Assembly (NCBI GenBank): GCA_964016885.1
Contig: CAXHJY010001047.1
Span: 1-47,889, forward strand
Reading direction: 5' to 3'
From: Eledone cirrhosa
Taxonomy: Eukaryota
DNA length: 47,889 bases
Numbering within the stretch: position 1 is the first letter of the stretch; each line of letters begins with the position of its first letter. Position numbers and translations under genes: made by a program. Below the pieces are notes generated by a model, which saw nothing but the letters and a program-made list of their open reading frames with translations, was not told the DNA's origin and ran no database searches. Below, piece after piece: positions 10,055-47,889 of this stretch.

Positions 10055-11926
10055 TTTGCAAAAAAAACACAAAATCCACTGGCTCTACTGTTGGCCCTCT
10101 AATTGATGAAAATGGCACTCTTCAAGACAATGCTAAAACCATGGGTGAGATACTGCAGAAACAATACTGCTCTGTTTTCAGCAATCCTGATATGGCCGAT
10201 CTGGGCTGTATCGGCGATGTTACTCCCCATTACACCTTATCGGACATAACGTTTGGCGCCCCTGATGTCTTGGCGGCAATAAAGGAAATCAAGCATAATT
10301 CAGCAGTAGGTCCCGATAGGTTCCCTGCTTGTGTCTTGAAGGCGTGTCAACACCAACTTGCATCTCCTCTTGCCAATCTGTGGCGGAACTCACTGGATGC
10401 TGGATATGTGCCAGAAAACCTTCTATACCAGTCTGTTGTCCCAGTTTTCAAAAAGGGAAACAAATCCCTTGCCGTGAATTACCGTCAATCTCACTCACCT
10501 CTCATATCATTAAGGTATTTGAGAGAGTGGTGAGATCGCGAATGACCCACTTCCTTGAGAGTAACAATATGCTGAACTCCAACCAGCATGGATTCCGTAA
10601 TGGAAGGGATTGCCTGACGCAGCTACTGCATCACTTTGATGACATTTTGAGAGCCTTGGGAGAGGGTTCCAACACTGATGTTATCTACCTTGATTTCAGC
10701 AAGGCCTTTGACAGGGTTGATCATAACATTCTACTGAGAAAGCTGTCCAATATTGGTGTCACTGGAAAGCTGCTGCGGTGGTTCAAGAGCTTCCTGTCAA
10801 ACAGAATCCAACATGTTGTAGTTGAGGGAGTCAAATCCAGCCCAGCCAAAGTCAGTAGTGGTGTCCCACAAGGCACTGTGTTGGGCCCACTTCTCTTCAT
10901 CATCTATATTAATGACATCACTGACATCATCAAACACAGCAACATTAAAATTTTCGCTGATGATTCCAAGCTCCAAAAGGTCATCAATGGCGTGGATGAC
11001 CGGATAAGCCTTCAGTCAGACCTACTGGCTGTTACCCAATGGGCGGAAAAGAACAACATGTTACTGAACGAAGACAAATTCGAACTGATCCACTTTGGAA
11101 AAGAGGATGCTCTGAAACTCCCGTACTCCCTTCCCTCCGGGGAAACTCTCGTGGCATCTAACAACATCAGAGACTTGGGAGTAACCGTGGACAGCAACAT
11201 AAGCTGGACCACGCATATAAGCAGCAAAGTTGACATGGCCCGCAGAATGTGTTCCTGGATCCTCAGAACCTTCCAGTCGAGAGATTCCCGCACCATTATC
11301 CTTCTCTTCTCTACTTTTGCCCGACCACACCTTGAATACTGTTGTCCACTGTGGTCTCCCCACACGAAACAAAGTATCATGAAACTTGAAGCTCCTCAAA
11401 AGGCAATCACGAAAAAGATAGATGGCATGCCAGGACCTTGACTACTGGGGTCGACTAGAAAACCTGAAACTTTACTCACTCCAACGTCGCCGTGAGCGTT
11501 ATATTATCTGCATGATGTGGAAAATGTTCCATCATCACTGCCCAAATGATGTTGGCATCGCCTTCAAGATACACCCAAGGCTTGGGCCCCGTGCTATCCG
11601 TCCCATTCAAAAATCTAAATCGCAACTCATAACAACAATACGGCACAATTATTTCACCTCAATCGGCCCTGCTCTCTTCAACATCACACCAGGACACGTC
11701 AAAACAGAAACTGACCACACAAAATTCAAGAAGTCTTTGGACAAATTCCTCCAAGTAATCCCGGAGAAACCACCCACACCCGGATATGTCTCCGCAAACA
11801 GTAATTCTTTTCTCGAATGGGCCATGGTGCCCAAATCCTGAATTGAAAGACTTCGCCAGGTGGTGCTATTAAGTTAGACATGGCCTGGGCCAATACTGGC
11901 CAAAACATTTCAAAGTTATTCAAAGT

Positions 11927-12929: not shown

Positions 12930-13970
12930 CTTAATCAAGACATCACATCTCCAATACTATGGGTATGTGTTTAGAATGTCTCAGGAAAGGACCGCTGGAG
13001 AAATTTGAGAGATCACAGCTCCAATACTATGGGTATGTGTTTAGAATGTCTCAGGAAAGGACCGCTGGAGAAATTTGAGAGATCACAGCTCCAATACTAT
13101 GGGTATGTGTTTAGAATGTCTCAGGAAAGGACCGCTGGAGAAATTTGAGAGATCACAGCTCCAATACTATGGGTATGTGTTTAGAATGTCTCATGAAAGG
13201 ACCGCTGGAGAAATTTGAGAGATCACAGCTCCAATACTATGGGTATGTGTTTAGAATGTCTCAGGAAAGGACCGCTGGAGAAATTTGAGAGATCACAGCT
13301 CTGACTATGGGTATGTGTTTAGAATGTCTCAGGAAAGGACCGCTGGAGAAATTTGAGAGATCACAGCTCTGACTATGGGTATGTGTTTAGAATGTCTCAG
13401 GAAAGGACCGCTGGAGAAATTTGAGAGATCACAGCTCTGATACTATAGGTACGTGTTTAGAATGTCTCAGGAAAGGACCGCTGGAGAAATTTGAGAGATC
13501 ACAGCTCTGATACTATGGGTATGTGTTTAGAATGTCTCAGGAAAGGACCGCTGGAGAAATTTGAGAGATCACAGCTCTGATACTATGGGCATGTGTTTAG
13601 AATGTCTCAGGAAAGGACCGCTGGAGAAATTTGAGAGACCACAGCTGTGATACTTAGGGTATGTGTTTAGAATGTCTCAGGAAAGGACCGCTGGAGAAAT
13701 TTGAGAGACCACAGCTCTGATACTATGGGCATGTGTTTAGAATGTCTCAGGAAAGAATCGCTGGACTGATTTTATGAGCAAAACGAGCTGCAGGAGACCC
13801 AGGGGTAGACCTTGAGCAAGATGATTGGATAATATTTGAGATCGACTAGTCTCGTTTGAGTATCCTGGCGGATTAATTAGAGCCGTTTGCTTCTGACAGA
13901 ACCCGCTGGAAGGGGTATTTGAGGTGTCTTCCCTCCAGTCCTCGACCCTCCCATATATAAGTGGACCAAA
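12930..13970 (+). mobile_element. Decayed RTE-clade LINE 3' fragment hosting the minisatellite
   Basis: Unit translates ERSQLQYYG(Y/H)VFRMSQER; downstream RRPRGRP*AR*LDNI resembles the RTE C-terminal RLRWYGHV.R..GRRxRGRP..W motif. Confidence 0.7.
12949..13765 (+). repeat. Minisatellite, 70-bp unit (68-71), about 11.7 copies
   Basis: CCAATACTATGGGTATG.. at 12951, 13021, 13091, 13161, 13231, then CTCTGA variants; no spacers. Confidence 0.97.
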
Positions 13971-17439: not shown

Positions 17440-18473
17440 TAACTTTGAATAACTTTGAAATGTTTTGGCCAGTATTGGCCCAGGCCATGTCTAACTTAAT
17501 AGCACCACCTGGCGAAGTCTTTCAATTCAGGATTTGGGCACCATGGCCCATTCGAGAAGAGAATTACTGTTTGCGGAGACATATCCGGGTGTGGGTGGTT
17601 TGTCCGGGATTACTTGGAGGAATTTGTCCAAAGACTTCTTGAATTTTGTGTGGTCAGTTTCTGTTTTGACGTGTCCTGGTGTGATGTTGAAGAGAGCAGG
17701 GCCGATTGAGGTGAAATAATTGTGCCGTAATTGTTGTTATGAGTTGCGATTTAGATTTTTGAATGGGACGGATAGCACGGGGCCCAAGCCTTGGGTGTAT
17801 CTTGAAGGCGATGCCAACATCATTTGGGCAGTGATGATGGAACATTTTCCACATCATGCAGATAATATAACGCTCACGGCGACGTTGGAGTGAGTAAAGT
17901 TTCAGGTTTTCCAATCGACCCCAGTAGTCAAGGTCTGACATGCCATCTATCTTTTTCGTGATTGCCCTTTGAGGAGCTTCAAGTTTCATGATACTTTGTT
18001 TCGTGTGGGGAGACCACAGTGGACAACAGTATTCAAGGTGTGGTCGGGCGAAAGTAGCGAAGAGAAGGATAATGGTGCGGGAATCTCTCGACTGGAAGGT
18101 TCTGAGGATCCAGGAACACATTCTGCGGGCCATGTCAACTTTGCTGCTTATATGCGTGGTCCAGCTTATGTTGCTGTCCACGGTTACTCCCAAGTCTCTG
18201 ATGTTGTTAGATGCAACGAGAGTTTCCCCGGAGGGAAGGGAGTACGGGAGTTTCAGAGCCTCCTCTTTTCCAAAGTGGATCAGTTCGAATTTGTCTTCGT
18301 TCAGTAACATGTTGTTCTTTTCTGCCCATTGGGTAACAGCCAGTAGTCTGACTGAAGGCTTATCTGGTCATCCACGCCATTGATGACCTTTTGGAGCTTG
18401 GAATCATCAGCGAAAATTTTAATGTTGCTGTGTTTGATGATGTCAGTGATGTCATTAATATAGATGATGAAGA
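17440..18473 (-). mobile_element. CR1-like LINE family 2, copy 2 (shorter 5'-truncated)
   Basis: Near-identical reverse complement of ~10893-11928, same 3' tail, different indels. Confidence 0.93.
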
Positions 18474-19043: not shown

Positions 19044-19173
19044 CAGGAGAACATGATATGAAGGCTAAAAAAAAACACTTGTTGATAGTGCAGTTTTAAA
19101 TCAACATATATGTTGATTTAAAACTGCACTATCAACAAGTGTTTTTTTTTAGCCTTCATATCATGTTCTCCTG

Positions 19174-20083: not shown

Positions 20084-23000
20084 GACCATGCTGTAAAATG
20101 GAGGGGTAGAGAGGGCCCTTGAGTCTAGTAAGACATCCTCTCTAGTGCTGGTGGCACAAATAAAAGCACCCAGTCCATGCTGTAAAGTGGCGCTGGTGTT
20201 AGGAAGGGCATCCAACCAGTGTATCAATGCCAAAAAGCTTATCAGCACAGCAACAAAACAGCATAGAAAAATATGAAGACGTCGCATCTCAGAGTTGCAA
20301 CACTTAATGTTGGCACTCTCAGAGGTAGATCTGCTGAAATAGCGGAGATGCTGGAGAGAAGGCAGGTGGATGTGTGCTGCGTGCAAGAGGTGAGATGGAG
20401 AGGTGCCTCTGCGAGACTAGTCGTAGGCAAGCGTCTTAGCTATAAGCTATTCTGGGTAGGTAAGGATGATGGGTTAGGGGGAGTAGGCATTTTCCTGGCT
20501 GAGAAATGGATCAATAAGACAATAGAGGTAGTTCGAGTTAGTAATCGAATAATTAAGCTTAGATTAGTTGTAGGTAGGAGACTGCTGACAATCATCTCGG
20601 TCTATGCTCCCCAAGCAGGCCTAGGCAAAGATGAGAAAGACTGCTTTTATGAGCAACTTTTGCAAACAACCACAATGACAGAGGACGGAGACATCGTTAT
20701 GCTAGCAGGAGACTTCAATGGTCATGTTGGACGACTCCAGGATGGTTACACTGGGGTACATGGTGGCACGGTTACGGTTCAAGAAATGAAGAAGGAGTGA
20801 GACTTCTTGAATTTTGTGATGCAAGTACATTGACTATTTGCAACACAAACTTCCAGAAACCTGCCAATCACCTAATAACCTACAAATCTGGTGAGCACAT
20901 AAGCCACATTGACTTCCTGCTAGTTAGGCAGCGGACAGGCAGATAGTGTCTAATACCAAGGCATACCCTGGGGAAGAATGTACCCCACAGCATAGGTTAG
21001 TTGTTAGTGATATCTCAGTAAGCAAGAGATGGAATGAGACATATAGGAAGGTGTGGAGAAGAAAGGTCTGGAAGCTAAAAGACCTTTCACTAAAATTCAA
21101 ATTTAGGAAAGCCCTTCAAGATGTATATGACGAAAAAGAAGACGATTTAGAGACGTATAACATAGATAATAACTGGAAGTTCTTACGTGACAACTTGCTG
21201 AAGGCTACTGATGAAACCTGTGGCTGGAGCAGAGCTCCAACCAGACAGAGAGTGACCTGGTGGTGGAACAGCAGTGTAGATAGGCTATTAGAGACAAAAG
21301 ACTAGCATGGAAGGCTTGGAATAAGGGTGGGAGTAGGGAAGAATATACAGCCACTAAGAGAGAAGCTAGACGTCAGGTATACTTAGCACGCAGGGAGGCA
21401 GAGAGTAGGAGGTTTGCCAATGTTCTGCGACGGGAAGATCAGAGGCGTGCGGTGTTCCACATTGCAAGGCAGTGTGTCAATGCAAATCAGGATATTGTTG
21501 GTGATAAATGTGTCCGGGATGATGCCGGTGTACTTAGTGTCACGAATGACCAGAAAAAGGAGGCCTGGAAATGTCATTATGAGAGACTGATGAATGTGGA
21601 GAACGAATGGGAGAGAGAGAAATACCCTTGGTAGATCCGACAGAGGGACCAGCTATTGAGATTGACGAATATAGGGTCCAAGAGGCGATTAGGAAATGAA
21701 AAATGGTAAGGCGGCCGGACCATCGGGAATAGTTGCTGAGATGCTGAAGGCATCAGGGGACGTAGGCACTAAACTGGTTGCACGCATAATCAATCAGGCT
21801 ATATATGGTGGTGTCATACCCAAAGACTGGTGCAGCAGTATTCTCATAAATTGCTACAAAGGTAAAGGGGATGCGTTGGGGAGGAGCAATTATAGGGGTA
21901 TAAAACTGATAGATCAGGTTATGAAAGTGGCAGAAAGGATTTTAGCACAACTAATTAGAGAAAGGGTCAAACTAGATGAGATGCAGTTTGGTTTTGTGCC
22001 TGGGAAGAGTACAAACAGATGCCCTCTTCTTGGTGAGACAAATGCAAGAGAGGTTCTTAGAGAAGAATAAGCCACTATACTTAGCCTTTGTTGACCTAGA
22101 GAAGGCCTTTGATAGGGTACCCCGATCTGTCATCTGGTGGTCCCTAAGGAAGCTGGGTGTTGAGGAATGGCTTGTAAGGACAGTGCAAACTTTGTACAAA
22201 GGTACTCTCAGTAAAGTCAGTAGGAATGGAGTTTAGTGAGGAATTCCAGATACAAGTAGGAGTACATCAGGGTTCGGTCCTCAGCCCGCTCTTGATCATT
22301 ATAGTCCTCCAAGCCATAACAGAGGAGTTTAAGACTGGCTGTCCATGGGAACTTCTCTATGCTGACGATCTGGCTCTTATGGCAGAATCAGTAGAGGAGC
22401 TAGAGAATAAATTCCGGCTATGGAAACAGCAGTTGGAAGCAAGAGGACTGAGAGTAAATCTAGCTAAGACAAAAGTGTTGATGAGTAGAAAAGAGGACAA
22501 AACCCTGATTCCGTCAGGGAAATGGCCATGTTCGATATGCAGAAAAGGAACTGGCATAAATTCTATAAAATGCACACAATGTAGGTCCTGGGTACACAAG
22601 AGATGTAGCGGATAGCAGGCAAACTAACAGGTAGGGAGAAATATGTATGCAGTAGATGTACAGGGAAATTAGACAGTAGAAGTCGCACTGATAGACACAT
22701 TTTTCAAATGCGAGAGGGCGCTATAGAAGTGGTGGATAGCTTCCGGTACCTAGGAGATCAGATTAGCATGGGAGGAGGGTGTTCCGAGGCCATAGTATCT
22801 AGAATAAGGACGGGTTGGAAGAAGTTTAGGGAGCTGCTTCCTCTGTTGACGAAGAAGGGTTTCTCCCTGCGTACGAAAGGCCGGTTGTATGATGCCTGTG
22901 TGAGGAGCGCGATGCTGCATGGTAGTGAGACATGGGCAGCTACCGCAGAAGATATGCGACGGCTGGAGAGAAATGAGGCAAGCATGCTCCGTTGGATGTG

Positions 23001-23353
23001 CAGTGTAAATGTGCGTGAACGACCCAGCATAAATGTGTTGAGAGAGAAACTGTGTCTGAGAGGGATAGAATGTAGTGTACGGAGAGGAGACTGAGGTGGT
23101 ATGGACATGTGATGCGCATGGAGGATGACCGATGGGTGAAGAAGTGCCAGGAAATGCCAGTTGAAGGAAGACGTGGTAGAGGTAGACCACGAAAACATGG
23201 GCGGAGGTGGTGAGAACAGACCTCAGATCATTGAAGCTCACGGTGGAGATGACGAGGGACCGTCACGAGTGGAGAGATGCTGTGCTGAATAAGACCCGTC
23301 CCACCCTTGCAAGCAGGGAAAAGCGGACGTAAAATGATGATGATGATGATGAT
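20079..23353 (+). mobile_element. RTE-clade LINE, near full length
   Basis: Short 5' UTR, single APE-RT reading frame, (TGA)n 3' tail running into TA; 5' boundary approximate. Confidence 0.93.
20273..23332 (+). pseudogene. APE endonuclease / reverse transcriptase polyprotein with PHD-like finger, many frameshifts
   Basis: LRVATLNVGTL, VQEVRW, SVYAPQ, GDFNGHVG; GKAAGPSG, QFGF, FVDLEKAFDRVP, GVHQGSVLSPLL, LYADDL; CSIC/CTQC/HKRC/CSRC; RLRWYGHVMR. Confidence 0.92.
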
Positions 23354-24033: not shown

Positions 24034-24165
24034 CAGGACAACATGATATGAAGGCTAAAAAAACACTTGTTGATAGTGCAGTTTTAAATCAACATATCTG
24101 ATATGTTGATTTAAAACTGCACTATCAACAAGTGTTTTTTTTAGCCTTCATATCATGTTCTCCTG

Positions 24166-24356: not shown

Positions 24357-26728
<2,372 letters not shown>

Positions 26729-27020
26729 AAAACAAATAACGAAACGAAATTAAATTTCGTTTCGTTTGTAACTCACTTTTGTATGACTGACGCTTAAACA
26801 ATTAAGTCAAGAATGTACATCCACATATGTATACTGAAATACTAGTATGCATATGAATACACACACTTGTACATATGTAGATGTTCCGAGTTTTTCACTG
26901 GACACTTTACTGTGAGTGTCCAGCTATTCTGTATGTAAACACACAGACAAACCGGTTTTTAGAGTCATACTGGTTTTCGGGGGAAACACCTTTCCTCTAT
27001 TCTCCAGAAAGCCAGACAGG

Positions 27021-27065
27021 AATATTGGACTAGTTTCGATGTTGTTACATCTCATCAGCAATATT
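27021..27065 (-). ncRNA. Minimal type I hammerhead ribozyme
   Basis: Minus strand AATATTG-CTGATGA-GATGT-aaca-ACATC-GAAA-CTAG-TC-CAATATT; canonical core, GUC triplet. Confidence 0.95.
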
Positions 27066-27485
27066 TACCTATCTTCCGGCTTTTCTAGAGAATCGTAAAA
27101 GCACATATCGTTATATGCTTTTTCTATTAAAATTAGTAGTGGGCAGACTAATTTGCATAGAGCGTGAGTACGTACCGGTTCAGCGGAGACGATAAAAACA
27201 AATAACGAAACGAAATTAAATTTCGTTTCGTTTGTAACTCACTATTGTATGACTGACGCTTAAACAATTATGACAAGAATGTACATCCACATATGTATAC
27301 TGAAATACTAGTATGCATATGAATACACACACGTGTACATATGTAGATGTACCGAGTTTTTCACTGGACACTTTACTGTGAGTGTCCAGCTATTCTGTAT
27401 GTAAACACACAGACAAACCGGTTTTTAGAGTCATACTGGTTTTCGAGGAAACACCTTTTCTCTATTCTCCAGAAAGCCAGACAGG

Positions 27486-27530
27486 AATATTGGACTAGTT
27501 TCGATGTTGTTACATCTCATCAGCAATATT
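27486..27530 (-). ncRNA. Minimal type I hammerhead ribozyme
   Basis: Identical motif one unit (465 bp) away. Confidence 0.95.
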
Positions 27531-27971
27531 CACCTATCTTCCGGCCTTTCTAGAGAATCGTAAAAGCACATATCGTTATATGCTTTTTCTATGAAAATTA
27601 GAAGTGGGCAGACTAATTTGCATAGAGCGTGAGTACGTACCGGTTCAGCGAAGACGATAAAAACAAATAACGAAACGAAATTAAATTTCGTTTCGTTTGT
27701 CACTCACTTTTGTATGACTGACGCTTAAACAATTAAGTCAAGAATGTACATCCACATTTCTGGAGAATAGAGGAAAGGTGTTTCCTCGAAAACAAGTATG
27801 ACTCTAAAAACCGGTTTGTCTGTGTGTTTACATACAGAATAGCTGGACACTCACAGTAAAGTGTCCAGTGAAAAACTCGGTACATCTACATATGTACACG
27901 TGTGTGTATTCATATGCATACTAGTATTTCAGTATACATATGTGGATGTACATTCTTGACTTAATTGTTTA

Positions 27972-27986
27972 TATATATATATATTT

Positions 27987-28036
<50 letters not shown>

Positions 28037-28057
28037 ATATATATATATATATATAAA

Positions 28058-28114
<57 letters not shown>

Positions 28115-31679: not shown

Positions 31680-33018
31680 GAAATATAAGAATCAAAGAGC
31701 TGTTCAAAACATTATTGTGCTTACAGCTGTTTCCTCCAAACCGAGGTTTGGATTCTTCGGAGCAATTTATTAATGCATGGACAGTTATATGACCTCCTTT
31801 TCAGCCGAGAGACATACCGATACATATTCAAACATTGATACATATTCAAACATTGTGGGTCAACATTCATTACAGAATTTAGAGTGGCAGTACACACTTC
31901 GAGATTACATTTATATTAAGAGGTACAATCAAAAATCAAAAATACAGGTTAAAATACAACATGAAGATAAGCGGTTATATAGTGCAAATGTTATATGTGT
32001 GGCACGCATGTGCGTCTTGTTTATATAGTGTGGCAGAGAGATATGTGTGGTAGAGGCACTTAGGTAGGTAAACAAGAGTGTTAGGTTGGTAGATCTGGTG
32101 GCATATTCTTTATATGATTGAAGTCTGTGTGTGGAGAAATATTATAAGCATTAAAAATAGTGCAAGCATTAAAAGTGTTAAAAGTATTGGAGATGCACAG
32201 CGAAGGGATGTCAAGTATTTCATGTACTTCGGCATTTTCATGGTCAGGGGAGTGTATTTACATAATCCACGACAATGCAGTTAGAGATCGTAGTCTGGTG
32301 TTCATTAGTTCAATACAGGAGGCTGTTACGTTTCGAGAAACGCCATTGAATACCACCCGGAAGTGTGTGTGTGGCTAAGTGGAGTTAATGCATGCGGGGA
32401 GGTAACTCTGGGGTTTCTATACCTAGCTATTAAAATGTGTCCCAATATAGACCCTAATTTCTATGGTGATGCGCATCCTCCAAGAGAAATTTTTAAAGCA
32501 TAAAGTGTATTAACTATAGAGTAGTTTAATTAAGTTATGCTGAAGGTGATCATATTATTATGGTGGATTAACCCATCGTAAGGTGCCACAAATGGAGATT
32601 ATAGATGATGAGCGAGGATTCTAAATTAATGATCTCTGTGGTTGTAGTCTACTCATAGGACCAGGCGCGGTGATTGCAGGATTGCTTCAGGACCCAATGA
32701 TCTCTGGTAAGATCTGGGTCATCGCTTGCTACATTGGATGTCGAAAGATAATCATCCCCAGGCCGGCCAGAGGTCGATCCGCAGTCCTCGCGACCCCTCT
32801 CTGACCGTCAGATCATCCATATATGTACAACCCGCACGGCAGTTGCAATGCATTCACTCACTGCGCTCAGCAGCCCGGTCCAACTGCTCAACAGCGTTAC
32901 TAGATTAAATCATTTTTCATCTGTCTAAGGAAGGTGTTTCCTCTGCACAACACTATCCAACCGATCAATTCATGCTCAAATTACCCTTAGAGCGGTGTAG
33001 TGCCGTTCAAGTGGGTGG
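31675..33018 (-). repeat. Inverted copy of 35452-36795
   Basis: End coordinates sum identically (68470); mirrored small ORFs in the track; only scattered substitutions. Confidence 0.97.
31718..31764 (-). ncRNA. Hammerhead-like motif, CCGAAGA core variant (inverted arm)
   Basis: Reverse complement of 36706-36752. Confidence 0.7.
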
Positions 33019-35282
33019 CTTTAAAACCTTTAAAAGCCCCCCTCATAACGCTCTACTTAACTCCTTCGAAAATGACCTAGTTAAACTAGTTAAGAACATT
33101 AAATACAATAAGCACCATATTAGAAGCAACACCTTCTTAAACAAACTTAACACTTCTATTAATGGATTCAAAACTAGTAATAAAATTATTGTACACGCAG
33201 ATAAAACTAATAACATATACAGCATAGATTATAATACTTATAGAAAGTTTATATATAATGAACTACATAAAAGCTACAAAAAAACCACCTTGAAAAACTT
33301 AGAAGATATTAATGTAGAGGGTTATAATATAGTGTCTAAACTAGGACTGCAGAGGCATACACAACCTTTCACTCCGAACCCCCCTAGATTCTCTCTGAAG
33401 GACCATAAGGAGAACTTCATCAGCAACCCCACGATAAGATTTATCTGCCCTTCCAAGTCCGACATTGGTATTATCAGCAAGAAGATTTTGGATAAAATCA
33501 TCCCACAAATTAAACACAAGATACACCTTAAACAATGGGGAAATACGGGTGAAGTGATTGAATGGTTCAAGGATATCAAGAATAATAAGAACAAAAAATT
33601 TATTCAATTTGGTATCAATTCATACTACACCTCTATTTCCCCTATCCTATTAAATAAGGCACTTATCATGGCCATGAGCAATAGCGACCTGACTAGAGCC
33701 CAGGTTGATGTCATCCTTGCGGCCCGTAAAACCATAATCACCTTCGAGGACCAACTATGGACACGCAAGAATACGCACAACAACTTCGACATAACCATGG
33801 GATCTAGTGACTCGGCGCAGGTCACTGATTTGGTCGGCCTATACCTCCTTAATGAAATCCATAAGGACCTCCCTTACTTCAACGGGGTTTGTACCGCGAT
33901 GATGCACTTCTACTTATAGAATATAAAAAATTTAATATAGAAAGAACTAGAAAACAATTGCATAAGACATTCAAAAACTTTAACCTTAGTATCACCATGG
34001 ACAAAAACACTAAAAATGTTAACTTCCTAGACGCCACACTATACCTAGACTCAAAAATATATACACCTTTCCATAAGCCTAACGAGAAACTTATTTACGT
34101 AGATACCAAGTCTAATCACCCTAGATCAATATTAAACTCTACCTCTAAGGGGGTGTCCAATAGAATCTCTAGTCTGTCCTATGACGCAAACATATTTAGC
34201 AAAAACTCACAATATTACAATCAAGCATTAGCTAGCTCCGGCCATAATATAGAAATTGAGTTCCTACCTAAGAAAACACATAGCTACAACATCATCTCGC
34301 ACAACATGTCCATGAGGAAACCTAATAATAGGAATAGCAACCACAAGTACACCAAAGCGGAGGGTGCCACCGGAAGTAACCATTACCATGGAAACTACTG
34401 TGGGGCCTTAGGAGGAAGCAACATACCAAACACTAAAAGCAAAAATAGAAGAAGAAATAATACATTTTTCAACCCTCCTTTCAACCTAAATGTCTCCACC
34501 AGCATACATAGGGCTTTCTTCTCACTACTAGATAAAAACTTCCCTCTAGGACACAAGTACCACAAACTCTTAAACAAAAACACCATTAAAATCTCATACT
34601 CTACGACGCCTAACTTAGCATACCACATAGCTAGCAGCAATAATAGTAAAATTAGTTCTTACTTCCAACAAACAAAATCACAACGGGATGCAAACCCTCT
34701 AAATACCACTGTAGCAAGCAACCATAGCAACGGCAGTAACAATAGAAATAACACTAGTATAAGTAATAACACCAGGGTTGTCAACCCGAACGCCCAAAAT
34801 CCTATAGCTACCACACAGACTTCCGCACTGCATTATAACCAGCGGACTAACGCACAGGATAATTGTAACAGTAGAGCTGCCCTTTAGATAAAAAATGCCT
34901 AACCAAGGATATCATATACTCATGCACCGTCACGATTAACAACTCTTCAGAAACCTATGTAGGCTCCACTTCTAACTGCTTCAAAATCAGATATAATTCG
35001 CACATCCACTCGTTCAAAAAGCACAGCCTAGCAAACTCCACCTCACTTTCTAGCTACATACACTATCTAAAATCTAAAAATAAACCATACACACTCAAAT
35101 GGGAAGTGATAGGCAGCGCGACCTCGTACAAACCACCTAATAAATTTTGTAACCTCTGTATAGTAGAGACACACAATATTATCTTCTCCAACCGTAACCT
35201 ACTTAACAAAAAATCTGAGGTGTTTGCAACTTGCCAGCACCGCTTCAGACATTCCTTCCAAAACTTTAAGCCCAGTATATAG
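33017..35282 (+). pseudogene. PLE reverse transcriptase + GIY-YIG endonuclease, N-truncated, frameshifts near 33886 and 34875
   Basis: HADKTNN, RFICPSKS, FIQF(G)INSYYTSI, FDITMGSSDSAQV, LYRDD, NFLDATL; then CPLDKKCLTKDIIYSC..TYVGST..FKIRYNSH..CNLCIVE..LLNKKSE..CQH, stop 35280-35282 (hand translated). Confidence 0.92.
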
Positions 35283-36705
35283 CAATGTCGGACTGGAACC
35301 TAACACCACATCTAGCATCAAACACCAGAGACACACCTTATACTACATACCCAACACTAACTGATCTATTATAACACAAACAACGACACCCCTCTGGAAC
35401 CCTTCGCAGGGAGAATACCCATTTATACCTCTACGTCAGGTGTGACAACATCCACCCACTTGAACGGCACTACACCGCTCTAAGGGTAATTTGAGCATGA
35501 ATTGATCGGTTGGATAGTGTTGTGCAGAGGAAACACCTTCCTTAGACAGATGAAAAATGATTTAATCTAGTAACGCTGTTGAGCAGTAGGACCGGGCTGC
35601 TGAGCGCAGTGAGTGAATGCATTGCAACTGCCGTGCGGGTTGTACATATATGGATGATCTGACGGTCACAGGGGAGTCGCGAGGACTGCGGATCGACCTC
35701 TGGCCGGCCTGGGGATGATTATCTTTCGACATCCAATGTAGCAAGCGATGACCCAGATCTTACCAGAGATCATTGGGTCCTGAAGCAATCCTGCAATCAC
35801 CGCGCCTGGTCCTATGAGTAGACTACAACCACAGAGATCAATAATTTAGAATCCTCGCTCATCATCTATAATCTCCATTTGTGGCACCTTACGATGGGTT
35901 AATCCACCATAATAATATGATCACCTTCAGCATAACTTAATTAAACTACTCTATAGTTAATACACTTTATGCTTTAAAAATTTCTCTTGGAGGATGCGCA
36001 TCACCATAGAAATTAGGGTCTATATTGGGACACATTTTAATAGCTAGGTATAGAAACCCCAGAGTTACCTCCCCGCATGCATTAACTCCCCTTAGCCACA
36101 CACACACTTCCGGGTGGTATTCAATGGCGTTTCTCGAAACGTAACAGCCTCCTGTATTGAACTAATGAACACCAGACTACGATCTCTAACTGGATTGTCG
36201 TGGATTATGTAAATACACTCCCCTGACCATGAAAATGCCGAAGTACATGAAATACTTGACATTCCTTCGCTGTGCATCTCCAATACTTTTAACACTTTTA
36301 ATGCTTGCACTATTTTTAATGCTTATAATATTTCTCCACACACAGACTTCAATCATATAAAGAATATGCCACCAGATCTACCAACCTAACACTCTTGTTT
36401 ACCTACCTAAGTGCCTCTACCACACATATCTCTCTGCCACACTATATAAACAAGACGCACATGCGTGCCACACATATAACATTTGCACTATATAAGCGCT
36501 TATCTTCATGTTGTATTTTAACCTGTATTTTTGATTTTTGATTGTACCTCTTAATATAAATGTAATCTCGAAGTGTGTACTGCCACTCTAAATTCTGTAA
36601 TGAATGTTGACCCACAATGTTTGAATATGTATCAATGTTTGAATATGTATCGGTATGTCTCTCGGCTGAAAAGGAGGTCATATAACTGTCCATGCATTAA
36701 TAAAT

Positions 36706-36752
36706 TGCTCCGAAGAATCCAAACCTCGGTTTGGAGGAAACAGCTGTAAGCA
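36706..36752 (+). ncRNA. Type I hammerhead-like motif, CCGAAGA core variant
   Basis: TGCT-CCGAAGA-aTCCAAAC-ctcg-GTTTGGAg-GAAA-CAGCTG-TA-AGCA. Confidence 0.72.
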
Positions 36753-36956
36753 CAATAAAGTTTTGAACAGTTCTTTGATTCTTATATTTCATATAACTGC
36801 TCTGTAAATCATCTGATGTTTTTACATTGAGCTACTTAACTTACTGTTAATAAGGTAGTAATACATTACTGCCTACCACCATTTAGGGTTTATAAAAATA
36901 TATATAACTACAAAAGGTTTTTGTATTTGCATAACCATAAATAGTATACTTAATAC

Positions 36957-37031
<75 letters not shown>

Positions 37032-37222: not shown

Positions 37223-37245
37223 TATAAATATATATATAGTTATAT

Positions 37246-38391
37246 ATCAATATAGTTATAAGAACACCCCCACTAGAGAGCACTAACAAGTTTGATTTAG
37301 AACGTAGCACGATGGAAAGCATCCAGCAGATAGCTAATTCCATACACCAGAGTATAACTGTAACTATAGACTTCCCTTCCAAACACCCTAACAATAGACT
37401 ACCTGTATTAGACACAGAACTCTGGATTAACACTATAGACGAGAGAGCCCAAATTCTCCACTCACACTATGCTAAACCCATGGCCTCCAAATACCTGATA
37501 CTCAAAAACTCAGCAATGTCCAGTAGTGCTAAGTTTAATATTCTGATCGCAGATTTGGTACGAGTGATGAAGAATGTGTCCAGCATGTGCGACCCAACAG
37601 AAATGGAAGGACACATCCAACACTTCATCAACCGCATGCAGTTCTCTGGCTACAACCAAAGAGACAGAGTCAGAGTATACGAAGGAGCCATGGAAAAGTA
37701 TAAGACCCTCATAGAACTGGACATGAAAGGAATTTGCCCACTATACAGGAGCAAATCATGGAATAGCTTAGATAGGGCTAGACATAAGATAGGGAAGGCC
37801 ACATCATGGTACGACAACCAGAGATATCAGAGTGTCATGTTTGTGGACGCCACCCCTGGAGGGAAATTAGCTAACTAGTGTAGAAAGGCCCTGAGAAAGA
37901 CCCACTTAAAAATAAAGGTGGTAGAAAAGCCAGGAACCACCATAAAATCCCTGATCAGCAAAACCTACCCTTTTAAGAAAACCCACTGTACCAATAGGAA
38001 ATGTATCATATGTAAGGTGAACCCCCGGATAAACTGTAAAACTAGAAACGTAGTCTATAGCATAAGATGTACAGAGGGTACTTGCAGAAACACGACAACA
38101 ACATACATAGGTGAGACAGCTCGTAGCATAGGTGAAAGGATAGACCAACACTGGGGGGAACTAAAAGGACGAAAAAACGGGTCAGTACTATACGAACATG
38201 CTAGACAACAACATGACGGTAACATAGACAACATAGAAATTAGAATAATATCTAAACATAGGAATGACCCAGCAGATAGGCAAATCAGAGAGGCCAGTGA
38301 AATAGAAATTAGAACACCAAAGCTAAACAGAAAGAATGAGTGGAACAACAACAACACCCAAACAAACAACACTGACCTAAGAGAAGTATAA
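37246..38391 (+). pseudogene. PLE RT thumb + GIY-YIG endonuclease with in-frame TAG at 37876-37878
   Basis: LPVLDTELW, HYAKPM, MQFSGY, FVDATPGG; same frame continues KVVEKPG..CTNRKCIIC..NVVYSIRC..TYIGETARS..ER..QH..RQIREA..LN. Confidence 0.9.
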
Positions 38392-38918
38392 ATAAATAAG
38401 TAAATTAAATTAAATAAATAAAATAAGATAAATAAATACATACACAAGCACATAAACACACACTAGTCACCCAGCAGACACAACACTATACACACTAGTC
38501 ACACATCACACATAACACTATACACACACGAAAACGCATGCGCAAAGAAGACAAAATAAAATAAGATAAACAAACAAGCAAATAAATAAATAAATATATA
38601 GACAGACTGAACAAAAAAAAATGGCGTAGACATACAACACAACAGGAGGAACAATGAATATAACACCACTGACGATGTTGCAGATGTGCAACGAAAGATT
38701 TATGTAAATTATGAAAACTATATATATATGTGTTTGTCTATATTGTATCTGTATTATTTTTGACCGCCGGTCAGTCAATGGCAACATTGAGGACCGAGTA
38801 AGTTAGATCGCAGATATATATATATAAAAGACAGCGAGAAGCGAAATCCAACCAAACAGTGAGTGTGTTCTGTTATTAATTCTGGCAATATTACGCAAAT
38901 ATGACCCTCCCCAAATAT

Positions 38919-38925
<7 letters not shown>
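37246..38925 (+). mobile_element. Penelope-like element (non-Naiad type, clade not assigned), 5'-truncated just after the RT YVDD motif
   Basis: RT thumb plus GIY-YIG plus ~530-nt 3' region between TA tracts. Confidence 0.88.
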
Positions 38926-43536: not shown

Positions 43537-43848
43537 CTACATTTTAAATTTAAATGTATATTTAAACGTTGAGTTTAATCTATGTTTGCAACAACTGAAT
43601 AAATTTGTCCGTAGGTTAAGGGAATTTTTAGATTTTAGTATAAAGAATATCTCCTCTGCGCAGAGGTCACATGTCTCAGAGGATGAATTAAAAGGAATCC
43701 CTCTTGAGACTATATTCCAAGCCGTCGAATATCTAACGTTATCTAGCTTAAGTTGCCAGAGTACGCCTGATAGTGCCGTTGAAGATTTTTTATTTGGATC
43801 TGTGAAATAATTCTTGTGGTTATTATAGCGAAGTTTAAATTCCGTCGA
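43537..43848 (-). pseudogene. C-terminal half of PLE GIY-YIG endonuclease (103 aa, no start, absent from ORF track)
   Basis: STEFKLRYNNHKNYF..TALSGVLWQLK..WNIV..CDLCAEE..LNLRTNLFSCCKHR; aligns with FKIRYNSH..CNLC..LLNKKSE..CQHR at ~34980-35250. Confidence 0.9.
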
Positions 43849-44140
43849 TTTATTTTTATTTTTATCTAAACATTCCTCATGAAAAATTAAGCTACCCTAA
43901 AAGCCGATGCTCCAAATTTTTTGAATTAACCTTACACTAGATAAACTTCTATATTAAATATAGGAACATATGTAGACATAATTGGACATCATAATCTTTT
44001 TGAGATGTTCTTTGCTAGATGTGATTTGATAGATAATTTTTGGCTTTGTCTTGTAATGAACTTGACAATATATTGTCAATTAACTTTGAAGGGTTGTTCT
44101 TTGTGGTTTATTTTTATTTTTATTTTTATTTTTATTTTTA

Positions 44141-46819: not shown

Positions 46820-47889
46820 TCGTTTCTGAATTTGTTTAGCAAGATTCTTTATCTGAAATCGTGTGTTGAAACCGATATTGTTATACTTTGGAGGGTCATG
46901 TTGCCAATAAGAAACACACGCACCAGTTGCTTTCACTTCAATTTATTATATATTTATAAATTTACAAATCTACAAATTTACAAATCTACCCTTAAGGAAC
47001 ATATGTTCAAATTTAATGGTAAAACATATGCCTAAGAGGAAGGAGCAGCCATTGGTGTTAGCATTGCAGGCGACATAGCTAACTTATTCATGGTATGGTG
47101 GGACAGTAGACTTAAACTTAAACTTAAAGAACAATTAGAAGACAGCTTAACCCTGATAATGTACTCCCGCTACGTAGATGATATAATCATCGTAGTTAAG
47201 ACATCCCCACTAGAGAACAGTCAGGAACTAGAGAAAGACACAATGGAAAGCATCCAGCAAATAGCAAACTCCATCCACCAGAGCATTATAGTTACTATAG
47301 ACTACCCAAGTAGACACCCCAAACATCGATTACCTGTACTAGACACAGAGCTCTGGTTAGATACCATTAACAACCAAAAACAAATACTCCATTCCCATTA
47401 TGCCAAACCCATGACTTCCAAACATCTGACCACCGAAACTCGGCCATTTTGGACCATACCAAAATCAACATACTGATTGCGGATTTGGTACGGGTGGTGA
47501 GAAATGTGTCCCGCATTTGCAACCCCGAAGAACTAGAGAGACACATACAACACTTCATCCACCGTATGCAGTTCTCTGGCTACAATCAGAGAGATAGAAT
47601 CATAGTGTATAGAGGAGCCAGAACCAAATGGGAAAAAATGGTAAATAATGACATAAATGGGACCTGCCCCTTGTATAGGAGCACATTTTGGAATAGAATA
47701 GAAAGAACTAGGAACAAGGCCAATAGAATAAACTCATGGTATGATAGCAATAAATACCAGAATGTAATGTTCATCAATACAACCCCTAGAGGCGAACTAG
47801 CCTACAAATTTAGAAGGGCCCTAAATAAACATAAACTCAATATTAAGATAGTAGAAAGACCAGGTACCTCCCTAAAAACACTTATTAGC
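46820..47889 (+). mobile_element. Penelope-like element related to 37246-38925, 5'-truncated, runs off the window
   Basis: HMFKFNGKTYA*EEGAAIGVSIAGDIANLFMVWWD..YSRYVDD..MESIQQIANSIHQS..LPVLDTELW; in-frame TAA 47033-47035 and frameshift near 47430; preceded by an inverted 3'-end fragment. Confidence 0.88.

Follow-up and report, generated by a model that had tools for sequence, protein, structure and literature searches.

How the retrozymes of animals enter DNA is an open question. It is raised here by a locus in a 47,889-nt stretch of Eledone cirrhosa DNA (the window), where 465-nt units carrying hammerhead ribozymes stand in tandem between (TA)n tracts. Mobilisation by Penelope-like elements (PLEs) together with circular intermediates is proposed, from co-occurrence and homology, in the available text of two reports (Cervera and de la Pena, PMC7229834, 2020; Li, Clavereau and Pollet, 10.64898/2026.07.22.740005, 2026). 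The reading put forward here as likely is that a young family of 465-nt hammerhead elements is inserted by a borrowed PLE RT-endonuclease, working from the two sides of a single DNA break with a predicted RNA circle of one unit as its template. The family is a new addition to a known class and brings unusually direct genomic evidence to bear on a mechanism that had already been proposed.

Architecture of the element and its ribozyme

The element is made up of two arms and is flanked by (TA)n on both sides. Its features are listed below; unit coordinates (q) are those of the minus strand of 27192-27656.

25500..26725, no strand: left (TA)n target tract, which continues further left
26726..27757, minus strand: A arm, 2.2 units in ribozyme sense; its 3′ end is the fixed site A (unit position 465) and adjoins (TA)n
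26726..26794, minus strand: 69-bp ‘tail’ between sites B and A, found in the A arm only
27021..27065, minus strand: first copy of the type I hammerhead; cleavage after GUC is predicted at the junction 27028/27027
27028..27492, minus strand: predicted 465-nt monomer from cut to cut, as it would be released
27151..27158, minus strand: ATGCAAAT octamer, found again at 27616-27623 and conserved in the sister families
27486..27530, minus strand: type I hammerhead copy 2, core identical to copy 1, predicted cut between 27493 and 27492
27757..27971, plus strand: inverted B arm, unit positions 182-396; its 3′ end is the fixed site B and adjoins (TA)n
27972..28100, no strand: right (TA)n target tract

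The original prediction of 2.2 tandem units is borne out for 26726-27757 on the minus strand, where the head-to-tail units share 97.0% identity over 567 nt (16 mismatches and one gap). The units repeat every 466 nt where the array begins and every 465 nt when measured between the hammerheads, and the A arm is 5′-truncated at unit position 365. The tandem repeat had been drawn from 26727 to 27971, which is right as far as 27757; the last 215 bp (27757-27971, plus strand) repeat unit positions 182-396 in inverted orientation and lack the hammerhead. The two arms overlap by 1 nt. The four hairpin arm pairs that had been named are all present, with AAATTAGT/ACTAATTT intact in unit 1 only and CATATGTATACT/AGTATGCATATG carrying one mismatch. 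A perfect hairpin also lies within the 69-bp tail, at 26738-26766.

The 45-nt hammerhead core had been described as identical in units that otherwise differ, and it is the same at 27021-27065 and 27486-27530; the outer pair of helix I is not the same in the two units. Helix I has 7-8 bp with an extension, helix II has 5 bp and helix III has 2 bp with a 2-nt palindromic loop. In the available text of PMC4209133, such helix lengths define the canonical metazoan type I hammerhead, which works as a dimer, so the earlier label of a ‘minimal’ ribozyme was mistaken. The minimal hammerhead of PLEs is described there with a helix II of 7-8 bp, a helix I of 4-5 bp and neither helix III nor loop 3, a description that does not fit the hammerhead in the window. 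The Rfam model HH9 matches both copies weakly, scoring 33.7 and 31.1 bits where the gathering score is 52. The helix III palindrome ACUAGU can pair between two copies (-6.2 kcal/mol), and on this model the weak helix III probably requires two hammerheads to act as a dimer.

Cleavage is predicted after GUC at 27493 and 27028 (after q164), which would yield exactly 465 nt. The monomer folds with a z of -9.4, none of 100 shuffles folding as well, and as a circle it is predicted to have 68% of its bases paired. Across ten sequences from three families, the hammerhead pairing holds in 93% of cells, falling to 24-49% when the partners are slid. Compensatory, both-side changes are found at six of the 14 hammerhead pairs in the three families, including changes in the sister families; as the ten sequences are related, this covariation amounts to about three independent events, not ten. 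Intact cores were counted in 186 of 196 cases (80 loci). Covariation and intact cores together suggest a ribozyme under selection, its cleavage being a prediction. In the available text on Xenopus, only one of nine retrozyme dimers cleaved in vitro (10.64898/2026.07.22.740005).

The element is non-coding. No ORF of at least 100 aa was found within 26727-27971, and the domain and tRNA gene scans gave no RT or EN match inside the units and no tRNA gene. The element thus has none of the LTR/PBS/PPT organisation that these scans covered, as is expected of a non-LTR retrozyme. Its GC content of ~0.35 lies below the ~50% limit for retrozymes, its monomer is self-paired, and at least two consecutive units each bear a complete type I hammerhead. 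At the level of sequence, the element therefore qualifies as a non-LTR retrozyme, with cleavage and circles predicted. The earlier assignment as a retrozyme holds, the predicted GUC cuts being 465 nt apart; genomic evidence separately indicates a circular RNA template.

Other repeats are found elsewhere in the window. Near-identical palindromes of ~106 bp, at 19056-19161 and 24046-24153, possibly represent a small MITE and give spurious MIR529 matches; Rfam miRNA matches in the window were rejected as TA-repeat noise. A 70-bp tandem unit is present in 11.9 copies with 96% identity at 12938-13765, and fragments of disrupted LINEs, in which RT and AP-endonuclease domains are recognisable, lie at 10100-11841, 17654-18367 and 20267-23094.

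A dispersed family with two fixed ends

In the 3.0 Gb of genome searched, there are 1,622 exact 33-nt hammerhead cores (none with the reversed-pattern control), 2,369 exact junctions of the A end with (TA)n (control 0) and 1,146 of the B end, for which the pattern was stricter than for A (control 0). The element is one of more than 2,000 dispersed non-coding insertions and not a local satellite. The 127 full units compared differ on average by 0.7% inside a locus and by 1.6% from locus to locus, and 25 of them are identical to the majority sequence; this low divergence indicates that the family is young. In arrays of at least nine units, variants recur with a period of four or six units, a pattern of block duplications.

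Two sister families, with 11,228 and 1,516 pattern matches, are both ORF-less. Looser hammerhead patterns, used in search of an ORF-linked relative, returned ORF-less sister families only. These sister retrozymes are represented by L046 and L111; the larger family (11,228 matches) has a unit of 466-510 bp and A and B ends ~55-60 nt apart, and the other (1,516) is older. An older subfamily with 89% identity, at L132-L133 (G000:C1:95648000-95665900), forms an array of at least 38 units, both ends of which lie out of sight. It is a retrozyme turning into a satellite.

The ends were analysed at 52 loci, made up of the best-scoring and the position-ordered ones. All 36 loci with two classifiable arms pair an A end with a B end. 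The A end lies at q454-465 and the B end at q375-397, in 31 of the 36 at q391-397; in the five others the alignments stop at 378-382, short of 391-396. Sites A and B are 69-74 nt apart, with B the earlier. The remainder of the 52 loci comprises two with a B end and an unclassified end, and 14 with one long arm, several of these having B stubs of 9-20 nt. Among 80 further position-ordered loci, chosen by their A end, a long B arm is present at 44 and a B stub at 14; six run off the fetched stretch and 16 are of other kinds. Apparent exceptions to the A and B pairing are two facing B-B pairs in the genome-wide listing of B ends and the sister locus L109, which has two B ends.

The 3′ ends of the arms are fixed, their 5′ ends are variable and the two arms are joined 5′ to 5′. 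Target duplications of ~11-12 bp were found at three of the four non-TA sites examined (L034, L041 and L124). Dispersal, high copy number and duplications longer than 4 bp are expected of a retrozyme; a tail between two start sites and an inverted, 5′-truncated copy are features of PLEs. In the available text of PMC8557442, the tail, the inverted copy and a bias towards microsatellites are given as PLE traits. In the available text of PMC11167929, a PLE is reported to extend both strands in vitro, and the tail to lie between its two RT start sites.

The probable enzyme and template

Autonomous PLEs of this design reside in the same genome. The 942-aa frame of PLE-X combines RT and GIY-YIG with a CX4CX2C linker, and the element is two-ended and TA-targeted with sites ~62 nt apart; PLE-Y is likewise two-ended and TA-targeted, with sites ~45 nt apart. 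Both are young, and a first look gave ~2,450-2,490 candidates for each. For one resident PLE protein, the nearest relative that bears a name comes from Octopus vulgaris (67%), and Pfam recognises the PLE proteins weakly. Given the PLE-like ends of the retrozyme, the design of the resident PLEs and the traits in the available text of PMC8557442 and PMC11167929, it is very likely that a PLE mobilised the family.

The window itself holds a broken PLE at 31680-36957, with RT and GIY-YIG frames at 32909-35282 and a long inverted 5′ arm. It shares the two-end design of the retrozyme without homology to it. Both of its ends are at (TA)n, its 3′ arm has ~165 bp extra, and a hammerhead-like motif with an altered core lies near 36690-36760. 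A 5′-truncated PLE-B at 37240-38923 is related to PLE-X, has the same site-B end and carries a hammerhead-like motif near 38667-38705. More PLE fragments are found at 43537-43896 and 47036-47476.

The leading candidate for the driver is the PLE-X group. Four of 131 loci are joined directly to arms of TA-targeting PLEs of two types. At L012/L131 (G000:C4:377869661 onward), a retrozyme A arm is joined, with no TA between, to an inverted PLE-X arm that ends at PLE-X site B. This mixed insertion is a candidate for a single event that would name the driver. L241 is joined to PLE-B, L227 and L255 to the PLE-Y type, and L261 is joined via a LINE fragment; L241, L227 and L255 retain a remnant of a second arm. 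The joins at these three loci may each reflect a deletion between neighbours in one TA tract, and they therefore do not single out a driver. Nor does homology point to one: when the unit was compared with four PLE 3′ ends, AT-repeat and short chance matches were all that exceeded the shuffles.

When the two arms at a locus are compared, subfamily alleles prove to be shared in 68 of 85 cases; permutation gave a mean of 6% and a maximum of 26% (none of 2,000 as high). This sharing indicates that a single molecule or lineage served as template for both strands. Four of 90 arm 5′ ends fall no more than 10 nt from the cut site, with 4.1 expected. A linear monomer as template was ruled out, since the 5′ ends do not pile up at the cut site and copying passes through it. 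The arms hold up to 18 units as complete, seamless circular permutations.

Marks of editing were sought in 552 aligned pieces from 130 loci, L240 being left out as a duplicate of L239. Rare variants that are fixed in all covering units comprise, on the ribozyme strand, 24 A>G against four T>C changes out of 46 (p 7e-5), an excess that is partly due to three clustered loci; counted by locus, there are 12 against four (p 0.034). Variants confined to a single unit show 29 A>G against 30 T>C out of 350, which differs from the fixed class (Fisher p 0.001). The base before the 24 fixed A>G sites is U at 12 and G at two, in agreement with the neighbour preference of ADAR. At L246, one edit cluster is present in four units, distributed over both arms, and was found at no other place in the genome; at L247, a hyper-edited cluster is identical across the units and its pattern is private genome-wide. 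Such identical private clusters are attributed to repeated copying of one edited monomer. The pattern of L225 is not private, occurring in 69 units at seven places, which implies that edit marks can be inherited or recur. The window's own copy bears no private edit mark. In the sub-lineage made up of L225 and the six other places, the octamer, a possible internal promoter element by analogy with newt satellite 2, is altered by A>G marks, yet its arrays reach as many as 25 units, so that the octamer is dispensable or the edits recur.

From the edit marks, a circular RNA monomer is quite likely to be the main template. Assembly of sequencing run X1 against the unit, with four runs tried, gave a tangle of contigs. 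Run X4, labelled as another organism, gave one 495-nt contig (the unit plus 30) in a closed graph loop against window positions 27162-27656; it differs from the unit at 18 positions, of which five are A>G changes on the ribozyme strand, and may represent trace DNA or a circle. This contig was not used as evidence for a circle because tandem DNA and a circle are indistinguishable in it.

Among the explanations that compete with copying from a circular monomer, one retains the PLE-driven retrozyme and replaces the template with an uncut read-through transcript, either linear or a multimeric circle, for which the hammerhead would be unneeded. This alternative accounts just as well for the shared alleles and for copying through the cut site. 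At L041 and L044, the two arms have variants in common in their first unit that are missing from later units, and these register-matched variants fit a multimeric template; the main substrate of the anole PLE is an uncut RNA in the available text of PMC11167929. However, independent editing of the units of a multimer predicts an excess of A>G among single-unit variants, which is absent (29 vs 30), and the private clusters are the same in every unit, at L246 on both arms. An uncut template is considered rather improbable. Far less probable is that the unit is the pseudo-LTR of an autonomous PLE, the loci being truncated tail-end copies. No ORF with RT and GIY-YIG was found in or upstream of the units at 131 loci, nor any PLE ORF upstream in the same orientation; the seamless permutations of up to 18 units per arm, the two ORF-less sister families, the want of homology to the four PLE ends and a ribozyme that is canonical and not PLE-minimal likewise argue against it. 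The end architecture is nevertheless of PLE type by the available text of PMC8557442, and with more than 2,400 loci a rare ORF-bearing master could have been missed. According to the available text of 10.64898/2026.07.22.740005, known TEs are homologous to 24 of the 57 retrozyme families of Xenopus, and 21 of the 22 TEs concerned are PLEs.

The least probable of the three alternatives, and a highly unlikely one, is a satellite or fold-back repeat that multiplies as DNA, through recombination or rolling-circle amplification, with the hammerhead as a passenger. It leaves unexplained the two fixed 3′ ends with random 5′ ends, the target duplications, the strand-biased A>G changes and the covariation of the hammerhead, although the block duplications in long arrays and the one older array of at least 38 units are in its favour.

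Proposed mechanism and relation to known systems

In the mechanism favoured here, the array would be transcribed on the ribozyme strand, as the strand-biased A>G marks suggest. Paired hammerheads would cut the transcript into 465-nt monomers that become circles, and the stems of some circles may undergo A-to-I editing. A PLE enzyme would then nick both strands of the TA tract and prime at site A and, ~70 nt upstream, at site B, the places at which the fixed ends are observed. Copying of each arm would run past the cut site, for a number of turns that varies, and the cDNAs of the two arms would join 5′ to 5′, giving the architecture that is seen. Long arrays may later grow in place by block duplication, as the observed period-4 and period-6 patterns suggest. 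A fuller version has about an even chance of being correct: a PLE dimer on one A-to-I-edited 465-nt circle would use two sites of that single molecule to prime both sides of the TA break and would copy for many turns in each direction, with the edits made by the host entering the germline in multiple copies and driving the evolution of the family. Such a circle would need no homology to the ends of its helper and may ride more than one PLE clade.

The family resembles the non-LTR retrozymes of coral, mussel and axolotl, as far as these are described in the available text of PMC7229834 and 10.64898/2026.07.22.740005, in its non-coding tandem units with a canonical type I hammerhead in each. Low GC, a highly self-paired monomer, thousands of copies and coexisting PLEs are also shared with the metazoan non-LTR retrozymes described there. 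It differs from them in its two inverted arms with fixed A and B ends in (TA)n, the word ‘inverted’ being absent from the available text of PMC7229834, and in editing marks that record the template. The 465-nt unit is longer than the 170-400 nt given in 2020 (PMC7229834) and within the 51-972 bp given in 2026 (10.64898/2026.07.22.740005), in the available text of both. Unlike many of the Xenopus families in the latter, the present family showed no homology to the resident PLE ends with which it was compared. Its circles are predicted from genomic marks.

In common with EN+ PLEs, as described in the available parts of PMC8557442 and PMC11167929, the family has two RT start sites and a tail, an inverted 5′-truncated arm, microsatellite targeting and a hammerhead. 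Unlike them, it has no ORF and forms whole-unit concatemers of variable number, not partial tandems; its tail is ~70 nt, compared with 30-40, and its hammerhead is canonical where theirs is minimal. Newt satellite 2 and other hammerhead satellites, in the available text of PMC7229834, share the tandem units and the weak palindromic helix III that likely acts as a dimer, whereas dispersed, short two-armed insertions dominate here. In an incomplete library of papers without their supplements, no description was found of two-armed A and B ends, editing marks or cephalopod retrozymes.

The family yields predictions at the level of the nucleotide: two priming sites separated by 69-74 nt, insertion at TA, a template shared by the two strands and copying over multiple turns. 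These are testable by the in vitro PLE assay published in PMC11167929, as described in its available text. If the mechanism is true, the family would offer an example from nature of RNA edits that become fixed in the germline, and of concatemers made from a circle by a reverse transcriptase.
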